Below, one piece after another: positions 37,736 through 56,996 of a DNA stretch of 56,996 nt. How positions within the stretch are numbered: position 1 is the first letter of the stretch; each line of letters starts with the position of its first letter. Both the position numbers and the translations under genes were made by a program. The notes below the pieces were generated by a model, which ran no database searches, was not told the DNA's origin, and was given only the letters and a program-made list of their open reading frames with translations. The DNA is taken from the sequence record DRR378314_630; one strand, 5' to 3'.

Positions 37736-38779
37736 TTACCCATCCTTGGAACCCGCCAACTCCCGTGTAAGAACTGCAGCTGAAACCTCCTTGCAGCCAC
37801 TGGCATTCTGCCCCGCCCAAAGAGGCGAAAAGTCACCGCTACCGGCAGCTTCGGCCTTTGCACGCAACGGAGCAATGGCGGACGACGCCAGAGGGAAAGC
37901 TGGGGCGCTGGAACTCATCGGCCCAAGCTCGCGCATCACTCGGTTCACAATACCCCGGGCCGCTCCGCCACTGAACAGATTTGTCAGTGCAGTAACACGG
38001 CTGGCCTCTGACTTCAGTGCAGAGCGGTGCACCGCTCTGGTCTGGGCTTCCGGGCACAGTAAATACGCAGTGCCAATCTGCGCTCCGGCCGCTCCAAGCG
38101 CCATCGCAGCCTGCACGCCGTTAGCATCCGCAATACCACCGGCGGCGATAACGGGAATCTTCACCGCCTCGACCACCTGCGGAATCAAGGCGAAGGTACC
38201 CACCTGGGTACTGATGTTCCTGGACAGGAAGAACCCACGATGCCCACCGGCCTCGACCCCCTGGGCGATGATGGCGTCAACACCCTGCGCTTCCAGCCAG
38301 AGCGCTTCGTCCAACGTTGTAGCGGTCGAGAGTATCTTTCCGCCCCATCCTCTTATGCGTTCCATCAACTCAGTCGCCGGTAGGCCGAAGTGAAAGCTCA
38401 CAACCGGGGGCTTGAACTCCGCCAGAACCTCCGCCGCCTCGGCGCTGAATGGGGCCCTTCCTGCTTGCGCGGATACGTCATTGGAATCAATACCCAGCTC
38501 GTCGAAATATGGCGACAGCGCTTTGCGCCAGTGACGCTCTGCGTCGGCGTCTGGCTCCGGAGGCGTGTGACAGAAAAAGTTGACGTTGTAGGGCTTACTG
38601 GTCTGGCTTGTCAGTGCCTCCAACTCTTTTCGCAGTGCTTCAGGACTAAGCATGGCGCAGGGCAGCGAGCCAAGACCTCCCGCGTTGGACACCGCTACAG
38701 CCAGTTCATGCCCCTGCACGCCGGCCATCGGCGCCTGGATGATGGGGAAATCAATACCGAGCACTTCCTGGATGGTCAT
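37736..38779 (-). CDS. nitronate monooxygenase family flavoprotein
   Basis: PIIQAPMAG, EAGGHRG, IAAGGIAD, LWAGQ. Confidence 0.9.
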   Translation of the reverse strand: MTIQEVLGIDFPIIQAPMAGVQGHELAVAVSNAGGLGSLPCAMLSPEALRKELEALTSQTSKPYNVNFFCHTPPEPDADAERHWRKALSPYFDELGIDSNDVSAQAGRAPFSAEAAEVLAEFKPPVVSFHFGLPATELMERIRGWGGKILSTATTLDEALWLEAQGVDAIIAQGVEAGGHRGFFLSRNISTQVGTFALIPQVVEAVKIPVIAAGGIADANGVQAAMALGAAGAQIGTAYLLCPEAQTRAVHRSALKSEASRVTALTNLFSGGAARGIVNRVMRELGPMSSSAPAFPLASSAIAPLRAKAEAAGSGDFSPLWAGQNASGCKEVSAAVLTRELAGSKDG

Positions 38780-46023: not shown

Positions 46024-46944
46024 TCAAGTGGCCAACGCGTAATCGATCGCCGCACACACCGCGGTAGCCTGCGCAGCGTTGCATTGCTCGGGAGTGACAC
46101 GGGGGCTGTCGGGATAGACCTCGGTGGTGGTCTTGAAGGGTGCGCTGGTAACACTGGCGCACAGGCCCAACTGCGTTAGCGGATACTGAATGACACCCCG
46201 AGCGGCCACTGGTGAGCCGAAGATCTCTCCGTTTTCATCGGCCGGAGCGATATGAGCAACCTGTTCCACCGCCTTGATCAACGCCTGCTGGAATTCAGGT
46301 TGGGGGTCCTCGCTGTCATCAACCAGATAGAATCCGTCGGGAATCCCGCCCGGTTCGAACGGCTTGCCATCCCGGGCAGCCAGCGCGGGGCGAAACTCGG
46401 TTTCGTCGGTATCCGTGGTCTCATGCAAATCGATATGCAGCAGCACACGATCAACGACGGGCGCGACCAGTCGCATCAGTGCCGCCGATTCCTCTGCCTC
46501 ACCGTCATCGCGGAATGAGCGGTTCGGATCGACCGCGTTGGCGTTCCAGCGATGGATGCGTTCGTACGCCCAAGGGCTGACGCAGGGCGCGACCAGCAAA
46601 TTAACGCGGCCCGCGTAATCCGCCGCATACTGATCAACGAACTCCAGCGCGCCGTGCACGCCGCTGGTTTCATAGCCATGCACCCCGCCCGTTACCAGCA
46701 CGACCGGCAGATTGTCACGCCATTCGCGGCTGCGAATCGCCATCAGCGAATAACGATCGGAGCCATACTCCAAACAGCCATACTCTTCCACGTCGAAGCG
46801 GGAGCGCAGGCGCTCGATCACACTCAACACCTCGGATTCGTAGCTGCGTTGACGGGTCTGCTGCGACAACCACTCGGCGCGTTCTACCTCACCCCAGGGA
46901 ATGCCAGGTGTGCCGATGGGATAGGATGCGGAATCCTTGGTCAT
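46024..46944 (-). CDS. M14-family metallocarboxypeptidase / deacylase-like
   Basis: GGVHGYE, DPNRSF, IDLHET, TTEVYP. Confidence 0.85.
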   Translation of the reverse strand: MTKDSASYPIGTPGIPWGEVERAEWLSQQTRQRSYESEVLSVIERLRSRFDVEEYGCLEYGSDRYSLMAIRSREWRDNLPVVLVTGGVHGYETSGVHGALEFVDQYAADYAGRVNLLVAPCVSPWAYERIHRWNANAVDPNRSFRDDGEAEESAALMRLVAPVVDRVLLHIDLHETTDTDETEFRPALAARDGKPFEPGGIPDGFYLVDDSEDPQPEFQQALIKAVEQVAHIAPADENGEIFGSPVAARGVIQYPLTQLGLCASVTSAPFKTTTEVYPDSPRVTPEQCNAAQATAVCAAIDYALAT

Positions 46945-47038
46945 ACTGCCTTTTCTCCAGTCATAATCGTTGTATACGCCGCTTTTGGAGGGAGGGAAGC
47001 TGCCGAATAGAAGCCCTACACAGCCTTGCCTGCGATCG

Positions 47039-47812
47039 TTAGATATGCTCTTCGGCCCTGAGTGTCAGCACCTCATAACCATCGGAGGTAACGGCCACTG
47101 TATGCTCCCACTGAGCCGACAACTTCTTGTCGCTGGTGACAACGGTCCACCCATCTTTCTTCAACTTAACCTTGGCCTTACCCTGGTTAATCATGGGCTC
47201 TATTGTAAACACCATGCCTTCCTGGAGGACCAACCCTTTTCCCCGCTGGCCATAATGCAGAACCTGTGGCTCTTCATGCATTTCTCGACCAATCCCATGC
47301 CCACAATACTCGCGAACAACTGAATAGCCGTGCTTCTGGGCGTGGCTTTGAATGGCATGGCCGACATCTCCAAGTGTGGCACCAGGCTTTACGCTTCGAA
47401 TCCCTTCCCACATGGCCTCATAGGTCTTGTCGACCAAGCGCCTGGCGACCGGAGTTACGTCGCCGATCATGTACATTTTGCTGGAATCAGCGATAAATCC
47501 GCCCTGCTCTAATGTGATATCAACGTTGATGATATCCCCGGATTTCAGCTTCTGAGCAGTCGAAGGAACGCCGTGGCATACAACCCGGTTTACAGAGCTA
47601 TTCAGAACATACTGATACCCATACTGACCTTTACTCGCAGGGCGAGCGTTCAGCTGATCGACGATGTACCTCTCCGCAAGATCGTTGATATCCATTGTGG
47701 ATACGCCGATCTCGATATGGCCATCGAGGTAGTCGAAAACCGTTGCGAGAAGCCGACCGGACTCCCGCATCACACTCAATTCCTCGGTGCTTTTCCGTTT
47801 TACACTAGCCAC
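47039..47812 (-). CDS. map: type I methionine aminopeptidase
   Basis: CHGVP, NVDIT..DSS, GHGIG..HEEP, TIEPM, AQWEHT. Confidence 0.95.
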   Translation of the reverse strand: MASVKRKSTEELSVMRESGRLLATVFDYLDGHIEIGVSTMDINDLAERYIVDQLNARPASKGQYGYQYVLNSSVNRVVCHGVPSTAQKLKSGDIINVDITLEQGGFIADSSKMYMIGDVTPVARRLVDKTYEAMWEGIRSVKPGATLGDVGHAIQSHAQKHGYSVVREYCGHGIGREMHEEPQVLHYGQRGKGLVLQEGMVFTIEPMINQGKAKVKLKKDGWTVVTSDKKLSAQWEHTVAVTSDGYEVLTLRAEEHI

Positions 47813-48011
47813 CGACAGCCTTCCTTATGTCTACTTCGGCCAGCTTCATTTGGTCGCGCATGATGTCGGAGAACGACATGCTGGGATTCGCCTCGGCAAG
47901 CATGCCAACTTTTATCCAATATTCAGCCTGAGCATTGATAGAGCGAACCATCACGGCACTTGCCTTGCGGATCTCCCCGTGTAATTCGTCGTCAATCTTA
48001 ACAATTCCCAT
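47805..48011 (-). CDS. ParD-like ribbon-helix-helix protein
   Basis: MGIVKI..RSINAQAEYWIKVG; overlaps map start. Confidence 0.8.
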   Translation of the reverse strand: MGIVKIDDELHGEIRKASAVMVRSINAQAEYWIKVGMLAEANPSMSFSDIMRDQMKLAEVDIRKAVGG

Positions 48012-48023
48012 AGCAGCCCTTTA

Positions 48024-48051
48024 ATATACGATTTGTATACGAATCATATAT
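48024..48051. promoter_or_regulatory. palindromic operator upstream of ParD-like gene
   Basis: ATATACGATTTGTA|TACGAATCATATAT, 12/14 inverted match. Confidence 0.6.
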
Positions 48052-48157
48052 CGCGAGCAGCAGCCATTCAAGATGGGTAGGTAGATCTGGCACCCCATTG
48101 CCGAAGTATCAATCGTTCCGTTCTAATCATGGTTCAGGTGGTGCCTTGGAAAGGGGT

Positions 48158-48193
48158 CATCACGCGCTTGTCGCGTGGATGGCGTTATTAGCT
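48158..48193 (-). repeat. degenerate, truncated attC remnant
   Basis: Minus strand AGCTAATAACGCCATCCACGCGACAAGCGCGTGATG resembles an attC left arm and loop; right core missing. Confidence 0.5.
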
Positions 48194-48651
48194 TCCGCTA
48201 TCTCATATTGGCTAAACACCTGGATATTATGCCGACGTAACAACGCAGCCGTAACACCCATGCCAGGAGTTCGGTTACCAGAAAAGCGACCGTCATAGAT
48301 AAATGAACTTCCACAAGAGGGGCTGGACTCGGCCAGTATCGCTATCTCAATACTGAACTTTTTGCACAATTCCAGAGCAATAGATGCACCTGCAATAAAA
48401 TCGTCGGTGACAACATTTCCGCCCTTTTCAATAACGTCGGATTCGCCGTCTAATACATTGTTCCCGCTTCCTTCGACAATCTCCGCAGGTTTCCGTGGGA
48501 TACTCATTCCGGCCTCAACTTCGGGGCATACTGAAACAACCCGGCCTTCAGATATCCACCTCTCAATAAGCTGATCGTTCACCGAAAGGCTCCCGCCATC
48601 GTATCGAACCCTTTTCCCTAGAAGGCAGGCACTCATTAGTACTTTTCTCAA
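48160..48651 (-). CDS. DUF523 / 2-thiouracil desulfurase-like protein (cassette)
   Basis: SACLLG..RYDG, VCPEV, SPSCG; TTG start at 48651 inferred. Confidence 0.85.
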   Translation of the reverse strand: MRKVLMSACLLGKRVRYDGGSLSVNDQLIERWISEGRVVSVCPEVEAGMSIPRKPAEIVEGSGNNVLDGESDVIEKGGNVVTDDFIAGASIALELCKKFSIEIAILAESSPSCGSSFIYDGRFSGNRTPGMGVTAALLRRHNIQVFSQYEIAEANNAIHATSA

Positions 48652-48674
48652 ACGAATAGACCCCAGTATTGTGG

Positions 48675-48724
48675 TGCTAAGTTTTCGAGTATTGGGACCG
48701 GTGCTACCACCGCGGTTGTTAAGC
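48675..48724 (-). repeat. degenerate attC
   Basis: GTTAAGC at 48718-48724 overlapping GNAT stop; mutated core TGCTAAG at 48675. Confidence 0.55.
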
Positions 48725-49210
48725 ATTTGACTCCAGGACATGACCCTGCAGATCAAGTCCATAGAATTTCGTTCCGGGCGTTGGGTTATAAAAATAGGGC
48801 TCGATTTCCTCAAAGCCCATTAACTCATAAAGTTCCTGCGCCTTTTTCGTAGGAGGCACGGCATCCAGAACGACTCGGGTATAACCCATTCCTTTCAGCT
48901 TCAATAGCAGATTGTCCATGAGCACACGTCCGAGTCCCTTACCCTGATATTGTCGACGTACGTACAGACGCTTCACCTCTGCTGTATGATCGTCAATCCG
49001 TCTAAACCCAACACCACCGGCGATGCGAGAATTCTCGATTGCGAATGTATATTGGCCGCTAGGCAGCGAGAACAGTGCTTCGAGCGAGGCCATCTCTCCC
49101 TCAAAATCCTGATAGGAAAGATCGATACCCAGCCAATCTGCATACTCGAGAATAAGCTTTCTTAGCTCATCGCTATCTGCGGGGAAGACCACATCCCTGA
49201 TCATAACCAT
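48719..49210 (-). CDS. GNAT acetyltransferase (cassette)
   Basis: AEVKRLYV..QGKGLGR, LYELMGF. Confidence 0.9.
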   Translation of the reverse strand: MVMIRDVVFPADSDELRKLILEYADWLGIDLSYQDFEGEMASLEALFSLPSGQYTFAIENSRIAGGVGFRRIDDHTAEVKRLYVRRQYQGKGLGRVLMDNLLLKLKGMGYTRVVLDAVPPTKKAQELYELMGFEEIEPYFYNPTPGTKFYGLDLQGHVLESNA

Positions 49211-49232
49211 CTCTTCCGTGCTTTAGACTATT

Positions 49233-49328
49233 GCTCGACACCTTTGTTTGGCAGCGCCCCTGTGGCTTAACGAAAAGGCATTCGGTGGAGGCCGGAGGCC
49301 CAAAACGTACTTGAGCGACCTGCTACAC
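49233..49328 (-). repeat. degenerate attC
   Basis: Shares CGGTGGAGG-CCG-AGGCCC with attC at 52624-52709; cores GCTTAAC (49265) or GCTCGAC (49233) and GCTACAC (49322). Confidence 0.65.
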
Positions 49329-49709
49329 ATTGACTGAATACTTAAGGTCCCGTGCCTCGTCTCCAGTCATACCCCGAAATCCCCAACAATGGGCAGGCTG
49401 CTCCTTAATTGTCACTTCGATATCTACAGGAGATATGCCAACCACAGACTCAATTTTTCTGAAAAGTTCCTTGATCAGAGCCTTTTGGGTCTCTGGAGCC
49501 CTCCCCTGCATCATATTGATCTCTATGGCAGTGTAGGCCGGAGTTCTGCCACCTGGGTAATAAAAATCCTCGGCATCCATAGGGATAAAACGATGAGCCC
49601 GCTTGTCTTCCGGCATTCCGAGTACGGATTGCATGCATCCGTGAATGACCTCAGAGAGCTGAGCTTTGACCGGGTTAAGGTGTTCTCTGATTCCATATAT
49701 GACTATCAC
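49323..49709 (-). CDS. tautomerase-superfamily protein (cassette)
   Basis: MQGRAPETQKALI..WGFRG; GTG start after GGAGG; lacks an N-terminal Pro. Confidence 0.8.
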   Translation of the reverse strand: MIVIYGIREHLNPVKAQLSEVIHGCMQSVLGMPEDKRAHRFIPMDAEDFYYPGGRTPAYTAIEINMMQGRAPETQKALIKELFRKIESVVGISPVDIEVTIKEQPAHCWGFRGMTGDEARDLKYSVNV

Positions 49710-49726
49710 GATGCCTCCTGCAATAT

Positions 49727-49762
49727 GTGTAACGCTCCCATAACTCAATTCGATAATTAAGA
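49727..49762 (-). repeat. collapsed attC remnant
   Basis: GTGTAACGCTCCCATAAC... joined directly to mutated core ATTAAGA; interior missing. Confidence 0.55.
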
Positions 49763-50227
49763 GATTTTATACTCCATGAATACAGCTTCTGGGTGAGGGT
49801 TGAACCGGTACGGCTCGATTTCCTGGAAGCCAAAAGCTTGGTACAACCGCAAGGCCTTATCAAGCTCACGAACGCTGTCGAGTCGCACAGAACCATAACC
49901 CATTTCCTTCGCCTGACAGATCAAAGCCTCAGTCAGAGCTTTACCGATACCCATGCCATGGTAGTCTGGCAAAACATACATCCGCTTCATCTCAGCAACT
50001 CCGGGCTCGAACTCTCTGAGGCCGACAGCACCAACACACACTCCCTCAAAAGAGCTCAGCAATAGCGCACCTTTGGGTGGACCGTACATTATTGGCAGCG
50101 ATGCCAACTCACTGGAAAAGCCCTGAAACTCCAAATCCAGCCCTAGAAATTCTGCATATGCACGAATCAACCTACCACCCAAATCAAACTGTTCGGCGGT
50201 CTCAGCCACCTCAATACTTACGGACAT
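49757..50227 (-). CDS. GNAT acetyltransferase (cassette)
   Basis: AEMKRMYV..HGMGIGK, LYQAFGF. Confidence 0.9.
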   Translation of the reverse strand: MSVSIEVAETAEQFDLGGRLIRAYAEFLGLDLEFQGFSSELASLPIMYGPPKGALLLSSFEGVCVGAVGLREFEPGVAEMKRMYVLPDYHGMGIGKALTEALICQAKEMGYGSVRLDSVRELDKALRLYQAFGFQEIEPYRFNPHPEAVFMEYKIS

Positions 50228-50234
50228 CCTTATC

Positions 50235-50300
50235 TCCTAACGCTGGCTTTTGCGGCTAACACGCAATGCTTCAGCCGCCGCCGTGACAGCGAGGCCAAGG
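50235..50300 (-). repeat. degenerate attC
   Basis: TCCTAACGC.. core and CGCCGTGACAGC arm similar to the intact attCs; end approximate. Confidence 0.55.
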
Positions 50301-50331
50301 GGCTCAAGACAAAGCTCTCGCAGTACTTCAC

Positions 50332-50400
50332 CCGGGTGCCAGAGAGTTCGTGCAAACGAAGACCGGGTAAGTCCATATCTTTAGCATTCGCCGCTGCATC
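50332..50400 (-). pseudogene. HigB/RelE-type toxin internal fragment
   Basis: Minus frame from 50400 reads [23 protein letters not shown]. Confidence 0.7.
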
Positions 50401-50540
50401 GCCTCAACTACTTTCCTACCAACACCTTTACCGTGTTGATCTGGGTGCACGAGTAGCTGATGGTAATACACTACCAAGCTACCGTCTGAAATTGCGTTAC
50501 CGAAGCTAATGAGCTCGCCATTAATCCTCGTGGTTACCAC
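50394..50540 (-). pseudogene. GNAT acetyltransferase internal fragment
   Basis: GNAISDG.LVVYY..LLVHPDQHGKGVGR without normal N- or C-terminus. Confidence 0.75.
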
Positions 50541-50940
50541 TCTCTACCACGCTCAGAAGGTGCAAACTAACAATTGCAAGCGCGGCTACAGCAACATTCG
50601 TTGACACAGGATTGAAGGCTGCCCCAAGCAGCATGGGCTGCATCAGAGCAACAAATGCCAGCAAGCCGATCATTGCAATCAATGTAACGACTATCGGCCA
50701 TCGCTGGCGCCAAAATATCAAGACAACAGCCGACATGGCGATCTCTAGTACGCCACCGATATTTGCCAACTGCAACGCACCTGCCGGTGAAAAGCCCGCT
50801 GCCATCCCCATGGCCAGTTCATCCTCATGCGGATAGAGCAGTTTCGGAATCAAGCCATGATAGAACCAAATAAAGGCGATAGCGCCACGGCAGACTGCAT
50901 AGCTAAAAAATGGGCTACTCGCCCAGGAACCTCGATTCAT
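50521..50940 (-). CDS. DoxX-like membrane protein (cassette, second gene)
   Basis: WFYHGLIPKL, AAFNPV; four TM helices. Confidence 0.75.
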   Translation of the reverse strand: MNRGSWASSPFFSYAVCRGAIAFIWFYHGLIPKLLYPHEDELAMGMAAGFSPAGALQLANIGGVLEIAMSAVVLIFWRQRWPIVVTLIAMIGLLAFVALMQPMLLGAAFNPVSTNVAVAALAIVSLHLLSVVESGNHED

Positions 50941-51352
50941 GATCTTTATCCGGAATCATACAAACGTCATAGCGACCGAAAAGCTTGTAACGATTTAGTG
51001 CGATGCGGTCGTAAAGCCAGTCCCGAATGACTGAGGGGACAACCCAGCCAATACAGAAAAGTGGCCACGGCCATGGTAACCGAAGCATTACTCTGAAAAA
51101 CGCTGAGGACTTCGTGTATATGTTGGGCCCTTCAGCAAGCAGCATGGTTTCGAATGAATCTGTTGGGAAACCATGCGATTCCAGAATGGCCTGGCCTTCA
51201 GGTGACTGAACAGTCGCCAACTTGAATCGACGCTTTCTATCGAACCTGATGAGGAAGCGCGCCCACGCGGAACACAATCGGCACACTCCGTCGAACAGGA
51301 CCACTCGATCCTCGGGGGCAATATCTGGTTTAGATTGCGATTGTTGTTTCAT
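50915..51352 (-). CDS. DCC1-like thiol-disulfide oxidoreductase (cassette)
   Basis: FDGVCRLC, RDWLYDRIALNRYKLFG. Confidence 0.9.
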   Translation of the reverse strand: MKQQSQSKPDIAPEDRVVLFDGVCRLCSAWARFLIRFDRKRRFKLATVQSPEGQAILESHGFPTDSFETMLLAEGPNIYTKSSAFFRVMLRLPWPWPLFCIGWVVPSVIRDWLYDRIALNRYKLFGRYDVCMIPDKDHESRFLGE

Positions 51353-51357
51353 AACTG

Positions 51358-51485
51358 AGGTAACGTCTACTTTAAAGCGCCGGTGCCGAACACAGCGAAG
51401 TACCGGCTGGTTTGGACGGTTGTTTATGTTTCACTCCGCTAAACGCGCCAGAGCATGCGCTTCCGCCAAGAATCTCGGGTTATGT
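51358..51485 (-). repeat. degenerate (possibly composite) attC
   Basis: Cores AGGTAAC (51358) and GTTATGT (51479); internal CCGGTGC..GTACCGG stem. Confidence 0.6.
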
Positions 51486-51489
51486 GATC

Positions 51490-51897
51490 CTAGCTTACTC
51501 TGGCAGGACCTCGAATTCTGGCACGTCTCCAATCGCCCCATCCCAAACCCGCTCTGCTCGATGTAAAGATGTGCGCAGTTGGCAACACAGAGACTTCAGT
51601 GTCCAAACACCCTGCAGGAACAACGAGCAAACCTGCAACCTGAGTGTTTGGCAATGCCGAGCCACACAACTTACAGAAGCTTTTGTTATGACGAGTGCCA
51701 GGGAGCGTAAAGGAAGTCACAGCATCTACACCCGACTGCCAGACCAATTTAGCTGACTGCGAGAATAAATTTGCCGCATGAGCTGATCCCGTATCTTTCT
51801 GACAATACTCACAATGACACAGGTAAAAGCTGTCGAAGTCCCCATGGACCTCAAATTTCACTGTGCCACACAGGCAAGAACCAACATGCTTAGTCAT
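51490..51897 (-). CDS. GFA-family (CENP-V) zinc-binding protein (cassette), probable C-terminal frameshift
   Basis: GSCLCG, CHCEYC, FCKLCGS, PTAHIF. Confidence 0.85.
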   Translation of the reverse strand: MTKHVGSCLCGTVKFEVHGDFDSFYLCHCEYCQKDTGSAHAANLFSQSAKLVWQSGVDAVTSFTLPGTRHNKSFCKLCGSALPNTQVAGLLVVPAGCLDTEVSVLPTAHIFTSSRAGLGWGDWRRARIRGPARVS

Positions 51898-51930
51898 AGG
51901 GTTCCCTGCTATGATCTGTAGGTGACGCAC

Positions 51931-51975
51931 ACATAACGCCCGGCTCACGCGCCGGTTTGAAGCCGTTGGCTATAA
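51931..51975 (-). repeat. attC with internal deletion
   Basis: ACATAACGCCCGGCTCACGCGCCGGTTTGAAGCCG nearly identical to attC at 54976, then jumps to mutated core GCTATAA. Confidence 0.8.
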
Positions 51976-52608
51976 GCCAATGTACCCCAAGGCCACATCG
52001 ACTTCTGTGTAATCCCGAATCGATTTAGGGCTAATAATACGATCCCCGACAGAAACAAAGTTGTAACCCAGAGTTTTGGAAGCTTTCTGATCCCAAGGCC
52101 CATCCCCAAAATAGGTCATGGAATCGTAATGACTCATACCCGCACGCCTTTCGGCCAACCGCATAATCTCTGTTCTGCTGTAGTGATCCGAGGAAGAGGC
52201 CAACGGTATAGAAGGGAAGGTGATACCTGCAGCACCAAGTTTCATCGTCGCGGATTCACTCCAGCCTCCGGTCGCAAAAGCGACTGCAACATTCTTGCGT
52301 GCAACGAGTTGCGATAAAAACTCGTACGCTCCGGGGATTGGGGATACAGCGTGACTCGAAATGTAATCCGTTACTCTGCTCACGAACTCTTCTTTAACGT
52401 CTGCGGTGATCCTCTCGCTGTCACTTTGAAGGCCTAGTCCATCAATCACCTCAGCGAGAATCCCTGAATCAGTCACATGATGATAGCGACTCCAGTCAGG
52501 CACGATCCTTACTCCCAATACGCCCTCGATAGCTGCTTGGAAGCACTCAGTATCGAAGTCGTACGACTCAACCAACGTTCCGTCTATGTCGAATAAGACC
52601 AGATGCAC
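51970..52608 (-). CDS. HAD-family hydrolase (cassette)
   Basis: FDIDGTL, ATGG, FGDGPWD. Confidence 0.9.
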   Translation of the reverse strand: MHLVLFDIDGTLVESYDFDTECFQAAIEGVLGVRIVPDWSRYHHVTDSGILAEVIDGLGLQSDSERITADVKEEFVSRVTDYISSHAVSPIPGAYEFLSQLVARKNVAVAFATGGWSESATMKLGAAGITFPSIPLASSSDHYSRTEIMRLAERRAGMSHYDSMTYFGDGPWDQKASKTLGYNFVSVGDRIISPKSIRDYTEVDVALGYIGL

Positions 52609-52623
52609 AACCTATCCCTTGGT

Positions 52624-52709
52624 TTATAAAGTGAAGCTAAGCGGCGCCCTGACAAGGGCGTCCGGTGGAGGACCGAAGGCCCGGAACAACCTTAATGGCC
52701 TGGTTATGC
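52624..52709 (-). repeat. attC (one core mutated)
   Basis: TTATAAA(52624)...GTTATGC(52703), internal hairpins CGCCCT/AGGGCG. Confidence 0.8.
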
Positions 52710-52717
52710 GGCATGCC

Positions 52718-53122
52718 CTATAGCCCGAGCAACTTTGATGCAATCGAATCAAAATGAATGCCGAGATAGAGCAAAGCTGAAAGATTAGCGAACAAAAGCG
52801 TTGGAACAAGCCAAAGAACTGCTGCAAGGCCCCCTTCGTGTAGGTAGATGAAGATTTGAAACATAAAAAGTCCAAGATAAAGATCTATTCCTATCTGCCT
52901 ACCCCAGTGAAACTCTGCAACCTTGCGAATGGTGCGAAATATGTTTTCCTGGAAACTACAGTAAACGCTATATGCTAGAAACGCTGCGAATGTCACCCAG
53001 ACGACAAGCTTTAAAATTCCCAATTGACCAGTGAATGAGAAAATATCGGGATGCCAATTCAGGTACAGGGCGGCGGCGGCAAATATCGAATAGACCGACC
53101 ATGAAATCGTGTTCGCCGACAT
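52718..53122 (-). CDS. hypothetical membrane protein (cassette)
   Basis: 134 aa, about four TM helices, GGAGG RBS; bounded by GTTATGC/GCATAAC. Confidence 0.75.
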   Translation of the reverse strand: MSANTISWSVYSIFAAAALYLNWHPDIFSFTGQLGILKLVVWVTFAAFLAYSVYCSFQENIFRTIRKVAEFHWGRQIGIDLYLGLFMFQIFIYLHEGGLAAVLWLVPTLLFANLSALLYLGIHFDSIASKLLGL

Positions 53123-53144
53123 TAGGTATATCCTCCTGTGTGCT

Positions 53145-53204
53145 GCATAACGTCAGAGCGCACCGGCGCACTTTAGTGCGTCCGCGTGACGCGACTTGTT
53201 AAAG
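53145..53204 (-). repeat. attC, classical 60-bp type
   Basis: GCATAAC..GCGCAC..GCACT-TT-AGTGC..GTGACGC..GTTAAAG. Confidence 0.92.
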
Positions 53205-53205
53205 C

Positions 53206-54963
53206 TCAAAACCATCTCAGATTCGCGAGAATCTCCTTTTGGTAGATTTCCGCAACTTCTTCAAACCTTTCGTAACTACCACCGAACATGCCTGCGCGTA
53301 TAGGCCCCCAATTATCTTTGAGTTGCGCGGCTTCGCTCCTAAGCTTTTGGAAAGGAGAAATACCAATTCTGCGACCTTTCCAGCCAAACCTCCCAACGGG
53401 TCCCCAGCAGTAACTATCATCTTGCTTTTTCAGGTCGGCCGTCACCAAAGCAAAAAGTATCTCAAACTCATCAAACACTCGTTCATACGCCTTACCTAAG
53501 AAAAACAAGTCATCGAGGCTGGGTTGAAGAAGTTTGTAAAGATATTCACTCATTGGTGTAAAGTTTCGCTCATGCTCGGGTACTCGTTTGAAAACATCAG
53601 AAAGCTCCCCTGCTGCATTGGCAACTTTTTGAACGAATAGTGGTTCACTACTCTCGTGAATTGGCAACCCTAGCTTGGTATAAAATATTGTTGAGAGACT
53701 CTTATAATTTTGCCTTTCAATCGCGGCTATGCCAGCGCTGTAAACCAAGAGTAAAAGGGGATACCACCTGAGATTCACCCAAGCTACAAGACCACCTTGA
53801 CTCTCTAAAAGCCTGTCGCATGATCTAGAGACAATTTTGGAAAGCGATTTCAGTTGATTGTCACTCGCCCAATGTGACAAGCAAGCTACTATTGCGGATA
53901 AGTCTTTGGTGTGGCTCTCATAAGCCGAGATCCGTTCCAATAATTCTTCGTCAGAAAACTTTCCATTCACTGCGAAATTATCTTCGCTTGTAGACGATAG
54001 GAAGCGCCTTACTTCCTCAATAACGTAATCGTGCAACTTTATTTGTGAGCTATCGGATGGAATCAATTCTTTGAGATATTCGACTTTTTCCTCAGTTGTA
54101 TGCGTATCCCTTACTTCATCTGCATATGGTATGGTAATCAGATCATCATTGTCAGTGGTGCCATCATCTGACTCTGACTCCGAGTCAGGGACGGTTATAA
54201 TGAAATCCCCGTCACCATCGAATTGGCCATAATGAGGTGTTTGCTCCGAGTTAATATCATTTGCAACTTTTGAATATACATAAGCCATCAAGCCACTGGC
54301 TGTTATGACCCCATACTCATTCGCCGCTTTGCCTCTTATCCCCTCAATGAAATGTCCCGTGAAAACTGAGTGTCCAGGCAAGGGCCCACCGGAGTCTGCA
54401 ACGACCTCATTTGCCTTTCCTGCGGTAATTACCTGTCTTGAGAAACGCTGGTACATATCTCTGAGAAATCTACTACTTCCGGGCTTCAGATCCCTATGAA
54501 CCGCCAACCCTCCGTAGCATGCGTCCATTACGAATAAAATATGCTTTGCGCGAATTAGCTCAGCATTCCGAGTAAGCTCATCCCACCTTATAAACGTGGA
54601 GAAGTCCTCCAAATCGGCATCATAGGGTACAAGATAACCTACCTCACCTCTGACTCCTGATCTGGTATGGCCGTGACCAGCAAAAAACACAAACAACCTG
54701 TCATCAACTTTGACGTCGTCATTTGAAAACCTCAAGAATGATCTTAATATATTTTCTCGCGTAGCTTCGCTATCAAGAAGATACGTTACATTGCTTTCGT
54801 CGAAACCCAGGTCATTTATTAATACCTCACCAATCTCTTTTGCATCATTAACCGCATATCCAAGTGGCGCTACTCTCTCATAGCGATTGATGCCAATAAC
54901 CAAGGCTCTGCTGGTCTCATATTTTTGCTGAAGAATGAACTTAATATCACGCACTCTCAACAT
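53206..54963 (-). CDS. caspase (C14)-domain protein with uncharacterised C-terminal domain (cassette)
   Basis: ALVIGIN.Y, AVNDA, FFAGHG and MDACYGG catalytic dyad, HSVFT; start approximate. Confidence 0.88.
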   Translation of the reverse strand: MLRVRDIKFILQQKYETSRALVIGINRYERVAPLGYAVNDAKEIGEVLINDLGFDESNVTYLLDSEATRENILRSFLRFSNDDVKVDDRLFVFFAGHGHTRSGVRGEVGYLVPYDADLEDFSTFIRWDELTRNAELIRAKHILFVMDACYGGLAVHRDLKPGSSRFLRDMYQRFSRQVITAGKANEVVADSGGPLPGHSVFTGHFIEGIRGKAANEYGVITASGLMAYVYSKVANDINSEQTPHYGQFDGDGDFIITVPDSESESDDGTTDNDDLITIPYADEVRDTHTTEEKVEYLKELIPSDSSQIKLHDYVIEEVRRFLSSTSEDNFAVNGKFSDEELLERISAYESHTKDLSAIVACLSHWASDNQLKSLSKIVSRSCDRLLESQGGLVAWVNLRWYPLLLLVYSAGIAAIERQNYKSLSTIFYTKLGLPIHESSEPLFVQKVANAAGELSDVFKRVPEHERNFTPMSEYLYKLLQPSLDDLFFLGKAYERVFDEFEILFALVTADLKKQDDSYCWGPVGRFGWKGRRIGISPFQKLRSEAAQLKDNWGPIRAGMFGGSYERFEEVAEIYQKEILANLRWF

Positions 54964-54975
54964 TCCTTTTGTATG

Positions 54976-55053
54976 CTTTAACGCCCGGCTCACGCGCCGA
55001 TTTGGAGCCGCGAAGCGGCGGAAAAACGGTCGCCGTGCAGCCGATTGTTAAGC
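54976..55053 (-). repeat. attC, 78 bp
   Basis: CTTTAACGCCCGGCTCACG..CCGC-GAA-GCGG..CGTGCAGCCGATTGTTAAGC. Confidence 0.93.
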
Positions 55054-55056
55054 CTT

Positions 55057-55905
55057 TTATCGCAATGGCCACACTTTCCTATTTTTTAGGAAGCTGTCAT
55101 CTACAGTATAGGTATAGAAATATTCTTCAATTCCGAAGAAGCCATCCACATTGTGTTGATGGCATGCGGTGCGGGCTATTCGCGATAGAACATCAGAGAG
55201 CCAACGAGCAATTGTTAATGCGTAGTACCTGCCGAGCCTCTGGACAATCTTATTTTGACCCGTTCGGATAGAGGCTGACTTCACATCCTGCATCATCCTT
55301 CCGCTTTCATCAGTTTGCCTCACCATGGAAATAGGGGACATGAAATAATCAATGACTTCGGCATTGGCTTCGACCCGTCGCTGTGACGATTTCCCATAAT
55401 AGTGCTGATGCAATATAGCTTCCGCCACCTCATCCCACCACTTCCCAATTGGCTCTTCACTTGAGAGATTCGGCTCATCTAGAGAAGCGAAATTCGCGTA
55501 CCGCCCTCTCCGAGCATCGGCGAATGCATCTAGGCACTCCAAAATTTTCCTACTAATCTGTGTATCTGGGCGCGTGTACCTGAGGCCCAAATCTCTTGTC
55601 TTGGAAACCGCATCAACTGCATTTGCAAGATCTAGCAACTTATGACCAAATTTACGCACTTCTTTTTCTTCAGGCATTCGGCCGTTATTATTTATCGCGT
55701 AATCGGCCACTAAAATTAACTTTGCGAGCCTTTCCAATCCAACTGAAAGCCCAAAAAACGCAGTGTAATACTCGCCCATTTGGTCAGCATAATTAGCTCT
55801 CCCTAAGGCCGTGGCACCTGAGCCAATCAAGTGCCTCACTAACGCAGCTTCTCGCCCTAGCGCGTGCCATTCTGGTATATCCCATGGATTTATATTTCTG
55901 TCCAT
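55057..55905 (-). CDS. hypothetical protein, HEPN-like motifs (cassette)
   Basis: GLERLAKL..GHKLLDL..GRYANF; ATG at 55905 after GAGG. Confidence 0.7.
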   Translation of the reverse strand: MDRNINPWDIPEWHALGREAALVRHLIGSGATALGRANYADQMGEYYTAFFGLSVGLERLAKLILVADYAINNNGRMPEEKEVRKFGHKLLDLANAVDAVSKTRDLGLRYTRPDTQISRKILECLDAFADARRGRYANFASLDEPNLSSEEPIGKWWDEVAEAILHQHYYGKSSQRRVEANAEVIDYFMSPISMVRQTDESGRMMQDVKSASIRTGQNKIVQRLGRYYALTIARWLSDVLSRIARTACHQHNVDGFFGIEEYFYTYTVDDSFLKNRKVWPLR

Positions 55906-55929
55906 TTCTTCCTCGAAGTTCCATATGAG

Positions 55930-56013
55930 GCTTAACGCTTGCAGCATGCGCGCCCATGAAATGGAGCCAAAGGCGCAATTGAATGGGCGTCGCCGTGCCT
56001 GCGCTTGTTAGAT
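55930..56013 (-). repeat. attC, 84 bp
   Basis: GCTTAACGCTTGCAGCATG..CGCCCAT..ATGGGCG..CGTGCCTGCGCTTGTTAGAT. Confidence 0.93.
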
Positions 56014-56029: not shown

Positions 56030-56932
56030 CTACCATGTGAGGTCGTTCTCCAAAATGAGTGAGGGATCGATAAGGTCAATTCTGCGACAGAATCTATCAA
56101 GGTTTTCGGGGGCCTCGAATTTTATCTTAAAGGAAGGAGGCTCAACGGTGCCCTCCTTAATAGCCTTCGCGTCGATTGAAGCCAGTTGATCCAGAACACT
56201 AAGAAATTCATCGACGCCTTTACGAATTGGCCCGGCCCAGCAATGAGTCATTTCGTGAACTTCTTCAAAAGGCTCTGGCGGCACTATCTTGTGGCAGTCG
56301 ATCTCGAAATCTTTTAAGTGAAGATACAGGGCCGCCAACGCATCCACTTCGACTTGAAGTCGGCTGAGACCGCCTTCGTCTTTTACATCTCCAACGATGT
56401 TGGGAAGATCATGCGTGCAAAGAACGGATACAGAACGCAATAAACGTCTTATCGTATCGGGCCTACGCACTAGCCAGCTAAAATACTCTCGACCGTTTAA
56501 GTGGGTCGGCGATATAAAAGCGGCGCCACGTATCACTCGCTCAAGTTCAATTTCGGCGCGAGAGATACGGTCATCAAGCATTTGGCGGGTAATGGCCATA
56601 TTCCATCCACACCGCTGCTTCCGGAAAATTCGTTTTACCTCGGGAGATTCAGATTTGAGGGCGGCCGGCACATAATCTTTAAAACGGATATATGCCTTAA
56701 AGCCAATGGCTATCAACGAAATGGCCAATATGGGCGCTGCGAAATTTGCTACCGGTGCACGATTTCCAACGGCAGCCATAATCACCTCTGCTAGAGCCCA
56801 CAGCGATATCACGAGCGCTGCAAAAGTTGGGGCTTCAGGGGGCAAAAATCTTAAGTATTCCAGCGCAGCCTCATACCATCGCTTCTCAGAGAACTCGATC
56901 TTGTGCTCGCCTGAATACTGTCCATCACCCAT
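56030..56932 (-). CDS. hypothetical protein with two N-terminal TM helices (cassette)
   Basis: ATG at 56932 after GGAGAG; fills the cassette bounded by GTTAGAT/ATCTAAC. Confidence 0.75.
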   Translation of the reverse strand: MGDGQYSGEHKIEFSEKRWYEAALEYLRFLPPEAPTFAALVISLWALAEVIMAAVGNRAPVANFAAPILAISLIAIGFKAYIRFKDYVPAALKSESPEVKRIFRKQRCGWNMAITRQMLDDRISRAEIELERVIRGAAFISPTHLNGREYFSWLVRRPDTIRRLLRSVSVLCTHDLPNIVGDVKDEGGLSRLQVEVDALAALYLHLKDFEIDCHKIVPPEPFEEVHEMTHCWAGPIRKGVDEFLSVLDQLASIDAKAIKEGTVEPPSFKIKFEAPENLDRFCRRIDLIDPSLILENDLTW

Positions 56933-56944
56933 AGGCTCTCCAGA

Positions 56945-56996
56945 ATCTAACGCCTGGCTCACGCGCCGGTTTGGAGCCGCGAAGCGGCGGAAAATC
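56945..56996 (-). repeat. attC (cut by window edge)
   Basis: ATCTAACGCCTGGCTCACGCGCCGGTTTGGAGCCGCGAAGCGGCGGAAAA nearly identical to attC at 54976. Confidence 0.9.

Follow-up and report, generated by a model that had tools for sequence, protein, structure and literature searches.

Decayed attC sites and retained cassette genes in the integrase-distal part of a chromosomal integron array of Marinobacter type

Organisation of the array

We examined a window of 56,996 nucleotides (nt), the whole stretch of DNA from sequence record DRR378314_630, of which the part from 47 kb to the right end holds an integron cassette array. Its G+C content is 0.44–0.52, compared with 0.55–0.66 elsewhere, and between 47 and 57 kb there are dense short open reading frames (ORFs), with every cassette ORF on the minus strand. 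Imperfect palindromes are situated between the ORFs; on the plus strand they read xxxTAAC...GTTAxxx and fold into the R-box/L-box hairpins of cassette recombination (attC) sites, and the matches to our attC covariance model within the array are on the plus strand only, each at the 3' end of a cassette ORF. The plus strand of the window is the bottom, recombinogenic strand of these sites. The cassettes point left, which places the attI/intI side beyond the right end of the window and makes the left end integrase-distal. On the left the array ends beside an M14/AstE-like gene (46024..46944, minus strand), as it does in several other Marinobacter genomes, and by this chromosomal position it is of the sedentary kind. 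We conclude that 47–57 kb is the integrase-distal end of a Marinobacter-type sedentary chromosomal integron array, its class being assigned by chromosomal position.

We refer to the junctions from right to left as A to L. A preliminary description made from the letters alone had proposed that the attC sites decay progressively leftwards while the ORFs remain open, and that the oldest, most distal cassettes are being fixed as ordinary chromosomal genes. Our analysis indicates that the distal cassettes have probably lost their attC sites through independent lesions and now form an immobile block, within which some genes appear to be kept by purifying selection. The cassettes between 48.1 and 52.7 kb are, to judge from orthologues that still carry good attC sites, formerly ordinary mobile cassettes. 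Six of them, the HAD, GNAT2, GFA, GNAT1, tautomerase and DUF523 cassettes, have an orthologous cassette with an intact attC and a truncated or mutated one in the window.

Scores of attC sites along the array

Rfam at its gathering thresholds matched no family anywhere in the window, and thus had no attC model to offer. A 20-nt pattern from the window's commonest attC type led to at least 122 loci in public genomes, mostly of Marinobacter, Halopseudomonas and Halomonas, and attC candidates were collected by a family-blind rule (TAAC and GTTA 44–135 nt apart, with a fold of −0.22 kcal per nt or lower). The 431 candidates comprised 398 unique sequences in 76 clusters, and 79 representatives from 40 clusters form the seed of R2, a pan-attC covariance model made from sites of other genomes only and containing no window sequence. 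Its structure of 22 consensus base pairs, derived from constrained folds of the individual sequences, pairs 87.8% of cells compared with 62.4% in shuffles, and none of 500 shuffles was as high. Across nine related loci R2 gave 124 matches, always on one strand per locus, and 115 of these score at least 26 bits. R2 replaced an earlier model, R1, which was built on the C and B types only and missed E-type sites; a MAFFT alignment of mixed families passed to RNAalifold gave no usable consensus.

The window was scanned with filters off and E-values up to 10. The preliminary description held the sites right of 53100 to be intact, and they are: C (54976–55053), B (55930–56013) and D (53145–53204) are canonical and score 69.1, 59.9 and 47.6 bits respectively, and A (56946..56996), truncated where the window stops, shares 96% identity with C across 47 nt and has a partial R1 match at 56968–56996. 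Further left the R2 scores are 14.8 bits for E (52624–52709), 22.0 bits for F (51931–51975) and 12.5 bits (E 0.66) for a hairpin, G1 (51358–51429), all on the plus strand. G2, H, I, J, K and L drew no R2 match; L is matched by R1 alone (13.6 bits, E 0.19), in an alignment that deletes 37 positions of the model. The two remaining R2 matches in the window, of 9.5 and 8.8 bits, are both far outside the array. The left-hand sites thus score far below the right-hand ones, and also below the attC sites of their own orthologues. Inverse cores (xxxxAAC/GTTxxxx) are present in B, C, D and the visible half of A, and at least one core triplet is altered in E, F, I, J, K and L, with G1 and G2 retaining both. 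The R-box/L-box fold is found in B, C and D and partially in E and J; the hairpin is mostly gone from F, I and L, and K has no such fold.

Over the 11 junctions, score and order along the array are correlated with a Spearman rho of −0.93 (permutation p about 2e-5), and the three best-scoring sites would by chance be the three proximal ones in 1 of 165 cases, although these rank statistics are inflated because the pattern was noticed before it was tested. The pattern is real and well beyond chance. The polarity originally described is therefore upheld, but not as a smooth gradient: the score drops in a single step between D (47.6 bits) and E (14.8 bits) and then follows a slope. Such a step could arise if the window contains two zones, an old, inert and species-wide relic block (from ParD to GFA) beside younger, active cassettes, with one boundary and no gradient. 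The G+C content of the ORFs, 0.44–0.49 right of E and 0.48–0.51 left of it, fits that division, whereas the order within the left zone does not: E has point changes, F has a deletion yet scores 22 bits, G scores 12 bits, and beyond it there is nothing. We regard the two-zone explanation as possible but not probable, and return to it with the contigs of related strains.

Sites E, F and G and the HAD, GFA and DCC1/DoxX cassettes

Site E (52624..52709, plus strand) is a site of the E type in which the AAC triplet has become AAA (base 52630), confirming the mutated core reported for it. The window reads TTATAAA where nearly all of 36 aligned family copies have xxxTAAC; the exceptions are one other copy with AAA and two with CAC. 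The next block is GTGAA where the family has GCTGA or GCGAA, and family copies score 17–44 bits with R2 in comparison to 14.8 for E.

E and F flank the HAD hydrolase cassette (ORF 51970..52608, minus strand). An initial comparison with five genomes reached via loci gave no match to the HAD protein, and the genus-wide search found orthologues in three of 191 Marinobacter genomes, at 87–91% amino acid (aa) identity. All three carry a complete C-type attC of their own (70.9, 53.0 and 52.5 bits), and at the 5' boundary all three read TATAAC before diverging, where the window has TATAAA, the altered base of E. Site F (51931..51975, plus strand) is of the C type and has the internal deletion ascribed to it, 33 nt that are present in all three HAD orthologues and flanked by the near-repeats TGGAGCC/TGCAGCC. 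In addition its GTT triplet is changed to GCT (base 51970). At the end of the ORF the orthologues have GTTATAA and the window GCTATAA (at 51969), so that the ancestral stop codon was TAA within a TAAC core and is now a TAG overlapping a dead core.

The next cassette to the left encodes a GFA-family protein (51490..51948, minus strand), and what remains of its own attC, G2 (51437..51487, plus strand), is a 51-nt sequence that folds poorly although both core triplets are present; the GFA orthologue at locus L039 has a 70-nt attC of 46.4 bits. The G1 hairpin (51358..51429, plus strand) follows 4–6 nt farther on and folds with a closing AAC/GTT helix. It was considered as an intact attC that would break the polarity of the array and was rejected, its R2 score being only 12.5 bits. 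Positions 51358–51436, between G2 and the start of DCC1, appear to form a cassette of about 80 nt that has no ORF and consists almost entirely of the attC-like hairpin. Beyond it is a single cassette (50521..51352) with two overlapping minus-strand ORFs, for a DCC1-like thiol-disulfide oxidoreductase (50915–51352) and a DoxX-like membrane protein (50521–50940); the DCC1 start codon falls within a GTTATG motif.

Gene fragments at H and the collapsed site I

Region H (50230..50520, minus strand) has no attC, but contains remnants of three genes: a GNAT fragment (about 50400–50520), HigB (50337–50397) and HigA (50250–50338). Stretches of 89 nt and 61 nt are homologous to HigA and HigB respectively of an M. 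sediminicola cassette, the roughly 140 nt between them are gone, and a cassette boundary, CCTAAC, is retained at 50236–50241. The claim that the ORFs of the zone remain open therefore stands in part. The ORFs listed in the preliminary description are open, as are those for DoxX, DCC1 and GFA, but four gene remnants lie among them, three in H and one in K, and survival of ORFs is not general: ORFs in this zone decay too.

Site I (49727..49762, plus strand), at the end of the GNAT acetyltransferase ORF GNAT2 (49757..50227, minus strand), has collapsed to about 36 bp, as had been stated. What is left is the two extremities of a C-type attC, with about 42 nt gone; GTT has changed to ATT (base 49756) and the TAA stop codon is kept. 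The attC of the GNAT2 orthologue in M. daepoensis (L075; 83% aa identity) is a complete C-type site scoring 69.5 bits, of which I retains about 9 nt at one end and 13 nt at the other.

Site J and the tautomerase cassette

The tautomerase-family ORF (49323..49709, minus strand) also ends in a TAG that overlaps a dead core (GCTACAC at 49322), and the reading of stop and core put forward for this cassette and for HAD is correct at both. The tautomerase is present in 26 of the 191 Marinobacter genomes, and among the 12 loci examined eight have GTG-TAA-C, three have TAG and one has TGA. An attC of their own is detectable at four of these loci (47.1, 34.4, 31.3 and 28.1 bits) and at eight there is none. 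TAG occurs at L138 and at L134 and L139, and TGA at L137. The loci L134, L137 and L139 (G092, G102 and G060) share one common context that is not an array, with CCTTACAC upstream in place of GCGTTACAC. They retain remnants of cassette boundaries (CCTTACAC upstream, and GTGTAG or GTGTGA at the stop codon) and have no attC match within 1.5 kb, which suggests that the same cassette has here undergone a separate fixation, now complete. At another locus (G080 contig 1, 3283905–3293210) three copies of the tautomerase cassette are found in 10 kb of one array.

Site J itself (49233..49328, plus strand) is a full-length, long E-type attC with mutations in both cores and in the stems. On the bottom strand AAC has become GAC at 49237–49239 and GTT has become GCT at 49322–49324; seen from the coding strand, these are AAC to AGC on the ORF side and GTT to GTC on the crossover side. 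The crossover core was placed by alignment with orthologues of the neighbouring GNAT1 and with a long E-type copy. GCTTAAC at 49262–49268 was rejected as this core, since the orthologue alignments put the core at 49233–49239 and GCTTAAC in an internal loop. The mutation of the second core and stems of J goes beyond what had been described, as do the gene scrap at K, the fragments at H and the weak hairpin at G.

Sites K and L and the GNAT1 and DUF523 cassettes

The second GNAT acetyltransferase ORF, GNAT1 (48719..49210, minus strand), has three orthologues with attC sites of 53.4, 53.9 and 53.3 bits. In the window its junction K (48652..48724, plus strand) keeps one core, GTTAAGC (48718–48724), with the TAA stop codon, and the interior has been replaced. 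Positions 48676–48713 are 38 nt that match, at 89% identity, the 3' portion of a gene for a class IV aminotransferase, which in G009 is found at the distal end of the syntenic array, and the boundary of the next cassette reads CTTAGCA in place of GTTAGCA.

The last cassette encodes a DUF523 (2-thiouracil desulfurase family) protein (48160..48636, minus strand), found in 13 of the 191 genomes, whose last 10 codons lie inside its own attC. In five orthologues the ORF likewise enters a minimal attC of about 48 nt and stops within it, and attC sites of orthologues score 38.3, 20.4, 19.6 and 12.3 bits. L (48146..48193, plus strand) is the half site it was taken for, since only the part overlapping the DUF523 C-terminus is recognisable. 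Its coding part has 26 nt identical to the best orthologue, whereas the non-coding end, which carries the crossover core, has 8 mismatches in 12 positions and is unrecognisable. The ORF-side AAC is changed to AAT, a synonymous change in an asparagine codon. At 48184–48190 a C-to-G change has given rise to another GTT (in GTTATTA), three bases farther inward than the dead triplet, such that on the coding strand AAC persists, shifted by one codon. The DUF523 end at G058 is similarly truncated.

Orthologues with an attC of their own were thus found for each of these cassettes, at 12–71 bits across the set; TAA followed by C is the state in 3/3 HAD and 8/12 tautomerase orthologues, and the possibility that orthologues never have an attC and already use TAG, raised at the outset, does not hold. 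Recombination of attC sites requires the AAC/GTT triplets and a paired L box. We consider it very improbable that the left-hand sites are unusual but working attC sites misjudged by the covariance model. Over 69 nt E matches good family copies at 93% identity, a few family copies elsewhere have AAA, CAC or GTA cores, and G1 has its AAC/GTT closing helix; but F, I and L are without most of the hairpin of their orthologues, J has both triplets altered, the interior of K is a scrap of a gene and H has no candidate site. Recombination at the left-hand sites has presumably been lost.

Selection on the surviving ORFs

The ratio of nonsynonymous to synonymous substitution rates (dN/dS), which had been suggested as a check, is 0.02–0.26 for the surviving ORFs. 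In pairwise comparisons with orthologues it is 0.12–0.15 for HAD, 0.02–0.05 for the tautomerase, 0.07–0.12 for DUF523, 0.08–0.10 for GNAT1, 0.11 for GNAT2 and 0.16–0.26 for GFA. Codon changes private to the window are nonsynonymous and synonymous in the ratios 12:27 (HAD), 0:5 (tautomerase), 3:13 (DUF523) and 9:32 (GNAT1). The survivors accordingly bear signs of purifying selection, over a period that need not be limited to the time after immobilisation.

The window has four ORF-side core changes, and all four are silent for the protein: two are TAA to TAG, one is in the base after the stop codon, and one is a synonymous codon change. On our rough count of the possible single changes, four silent core changes would be expected by chance in about 2–5% of cases. 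A scan for promoters and terminators showed no excess over shuffles, with 12 promoter-like sites compared with 12.5 expected.

An alternative explanation is that the zone is unused and undergoing neutral erosion on its way to loss, the ORFs being open only for lack of time, and without any domestication. The HigB, HigA, GNAT and aminotransferase fragments in the same zone are in keeping with this, as are the lack of a promoter excess and the GFA ratio of up to 0.26, and with eight of the 12 tautomerase orthologues also without a detectable attC, loss is common and may be passive. However, the private changes are mostly synonymous (crude omega 0.13 for HAD, 0.07 for DUF523 and 0.09 for GNAT1, with 0/5 for the tautomerase), the ORF-side core mutations are protein-silent in 4/4 cases, and the 26 coding nucleotides of L are unchanged next to a non-coding end that has diverged beyond recognition. 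We consider neutral erosion unlikely.

The decayed junctions in related strains

Contigs of four public runs from four studies (two DNA metagenomes, the RNA library of one isolate and one metatranscriptome) were compared with 47000–53300. Records 96–99% alike bridge 48718–49996 and 48990–50254, covering GNAT1, J, the tautomerase, I and GNAT2; others bridge 50248–50828 (H), 50832–51928 and 50310–51928 (DoxX, DCC1, G and GFA) and 47855–48536 (ParD, L and DUF523). Decayed junctions are thus common to the four runs, and the decay predates the split of these strains. At K, one contig of run X1 has 1163 nt where the window has 48652–48717. Contigs from RNA libraries cover the block, which is not proof of transcription. 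A joint from 48147 to 51934 in an X2 contig was left unused because it has only 26 nt on its shorter side and was taken to be another organism's attC.

The match to every related record stops at 51928–51939, at the cassette boundary in F, after which the records run on in sequence unlike that of the window. No contig in any of the four runs covers 52064–52485 (HAD), although lack of cover alone is not proof of absence; the sole positive sign of a missing HAD is one X1 contig that joins 51939 to 52674 with 19 other letters between. Both the endpoint of the related contigs, exactly at the cassette boundary of F, and the absence of HAD from the four runs are what two zones would predict. E and F, though, flank the polymorphic HAD cassette and both are decayed, so that decay reaches beyond the shared block. 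The suggestion that the distal cassettes are the oldest and are being fixed is consequently supported for fixation, by the loss of attC, the low dN/dS and the shared junctions; that they are the oldest is doubtful, HAD being missing in relatives.

The chromosomal flank and other Marinobacter arrays

The left flank, comprising the M14/AstE-like gene and a short-chain fatty acid transporter gene, is conserved in Marinobacter, and the M14 gene was matched in 105 of the 191 genomes (E <= 1e-60). Among syntenic loci, attC matches are found beside it in G174, G083, G009 and L066, and in G058, G172 and G099 there is no attC match in 20 kb. At G174 sites of good quality (37–52 bits) persist to within about 3 kb of the M14 gene, and at G083 and G009 the attC matches begin after a conserved set of genes without attC (DUF899, PhnB-like and glyoxalase). 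Four Marinobacter genomes (L175, L177, L178 and L179) have DUF899, PhnB-like/3-dmu-9_3-mt and 116-aa glyoxalase genes between the M14 gene and the first attC, and this set may represent much older fixed cassettes.

In the position of that set the window has a ParD-like antitoxin gene that overlaps the start of an M24-peptidase (methionine-aminopeptidase-type) gene (47039..48011, minus strand), between the last cassette and the flank. The pair recurs at L056 (15184–16147), a Halopseudomonas metagenome-assembled genome (MAG), with 66% and 78% aa identity and about 5 kb beyond attC sites; the two genes may form an unusual antitoxin-peptidase pair or may be a terminal cassette. At L176 (10949–12814), in the G174 array, genes for a 621-aa PAAR/Tle1-like phospholipase protein and a DUF2931 protein adjoin the DUF523 cassette, and from its predicted product the former would put a type VI secretion effector-like gene in the company of integron cassettes. 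Outside the array, a nitronate monooxygenase gene of the window (37736–38779) has a 70% identical homologue at L029 (14338–15378; M. changyiensis), which sits between two E-type attC copies.

Cassettes of the right-hand sites

To the right of E, three ORFs on the minus strand match no Pfam family (56030..56962, 310 aa; 55057..55947, 296 aa; 52718..53122, 134 aa), and a fourth (53206..54993, minus strand; 595 aa) has a caspase-like Peptidase_C14 domain at residues 28–254, N-terminal to about 340 residues without a family match; it is large for a cassette product and looks defence-like. The plus-strand sites of these cassettes are canonical. B (55930..56013) has the fold and scores 86.6 bits with R1, D (53145..53204) is of a short type for which family copies were found, and C (54976..55053) is of a type present at 90% identity or more in over 100 loci. 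This C-type attC (72–78 nt) is 90–96% identical in well over 100 loci, including Marinobacter, Halomonas and Halopseudomonas, and it also occurs in MAGs labelled Gemmatimonas, Acidobacteriota, Anaerolineae, Prevotellaceae, Peptococcaceae, Binatia and Mesorhizobium, which points either to an extremely wide distribution of this cassette type or to contamination of the bins.

Discussion

We favour the explanation that the distal cassettes probably lost their attC sites through several independent lesions and were locked in place. The lesions differ by site and include substitutions in the AAC and GTT triplets, deletions in the hairpin between short near-repeats, which resemble replication slippage, and replacement of non-coding ends. 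Because a cassette can be excised only if the sites on both of its sides work, the decayed cassettes should be locked in one block and vertically inherited. Selection would then act on coding sequence only, and the parts of attC overlapping a frame or its stop codon would be kept in a protein-silent form (TAA to TAG, AAC to AAT). Part of the zone would be retained under purifying selection, with HigBA, GNAT and the aminotransferase cut down to scraps.

Several observations weigh against this explanation. Four gene remnants (HigB, HigA and GNAT in H, and the aminotransferase in K) show loss alongside retention, and GFA has the highest dN/dS of the survivors. Both the pairwise dN/dS and the private changes span time before and after the loss of attC, and are a crude stand-in for a terminal branch. 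The R2 seeds were chosen with perfect TAAC/GTTA, and the model consequently penalises core changes strongly; the profile that it gives is a step followed by a slope. HAD is polymorphic among close relatives despite damage at both flanking sites, so position is not simply age, and the good distal sites at G174 make distal decay lineage-specific and no rule of these arrays. Finally, there is no integrase gene within the window, which ends inside attC A, and an exact 40-mer scan of metagenome contigs for an extension of the right end found no match; shutdown of the whole integron and local decay are not separable from the window.

The silent core changes raise the question of whether coding overlap steers the death of attC sites. 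As a rule the core on the ORF side shares bases with the stop codon or with the final codons of the frame, so that, if overlap does constrain it, only silent changes (TAA to TAG or TGA, AAC to AAT, or the base after the stop codon) could be fixed. We count in favour of this the three further tautomerase lineages with a dead core, all of which keep a stop codon (L138; L134 and L139; L137), and offer it tentatively, as an idea that is rather doubtful at present. If true, it would leave a 'ghost core' signature in which ...TAGC or ...TGAx follows the complement of the cassette's own 5' TTRRRY, and this could be used genome-wide to spot chromosomal genes of cassette origin and to time their immobilisation.

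Loss of mobility through damage to attC has precedents. In class 1 integrons the 3' conserved segment (qacE-delta-1/sul1) is a case of a cassette with a truncated attC made a permanent part of the element, and Xanthomonas has decayed arrays, in which degradation follows once recombination stops. Fused cassettes have been defined as products of partial or total attC loss (PMC4670013); these are single events in short, mobile resistance integrons of class 1, in contrast to the window, where eight consecutive junctions of a chromosomal array have different lesions and the ancestral states are given by orthologues. In clusters whose attC sites are very degenerate, Cury et al. 2016 (PMC4889954) see a possible intermediate on the way to definitive gene stabilisation, and the window is similar in that genes acquired through an integron would be stabilised by lost cassette mobility; that suggestion concerns whole clusters without an integrase, whereas here the change is inside one array, beside good sites and with the integrase side out of view. 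Loot et al. (preprint, 10.1101/2022.09.11.507474) propose that inserted cassettes could be domesticated because a folded attC is easily deleted by replication slippage, the same mechanism that we propose, for which the deletion in F between TGGAGCC and TGCAGCC would be an example. In the preprint this is a one-sentence outlook on single cassettes outside integrons, whereas the cassettes of the window are within an array. Our literature search, with most subscription journals outside it, found no paper with a positional gradient or a series of distal decay in one array. Stabilisation of cassettes by loss of attC is already in print, and the window is therefore a well-resolved example and not a new principle; the freshest element is the stop-codon-coupled way in which cores die.

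Integrons have mostly been studied as machines that capture and shuffle genes, and the exit of genes to ordinary chromosomal status has been mostly a suggestion of discussion sections. This locus provides a natural series of steps in one array, from a core with a point mutation through a slippage-like deletion, a collapsed site and a half site to wreckage. The core mutation that preserves a stop codon is a sequence signature that could be searched for in other genomes.

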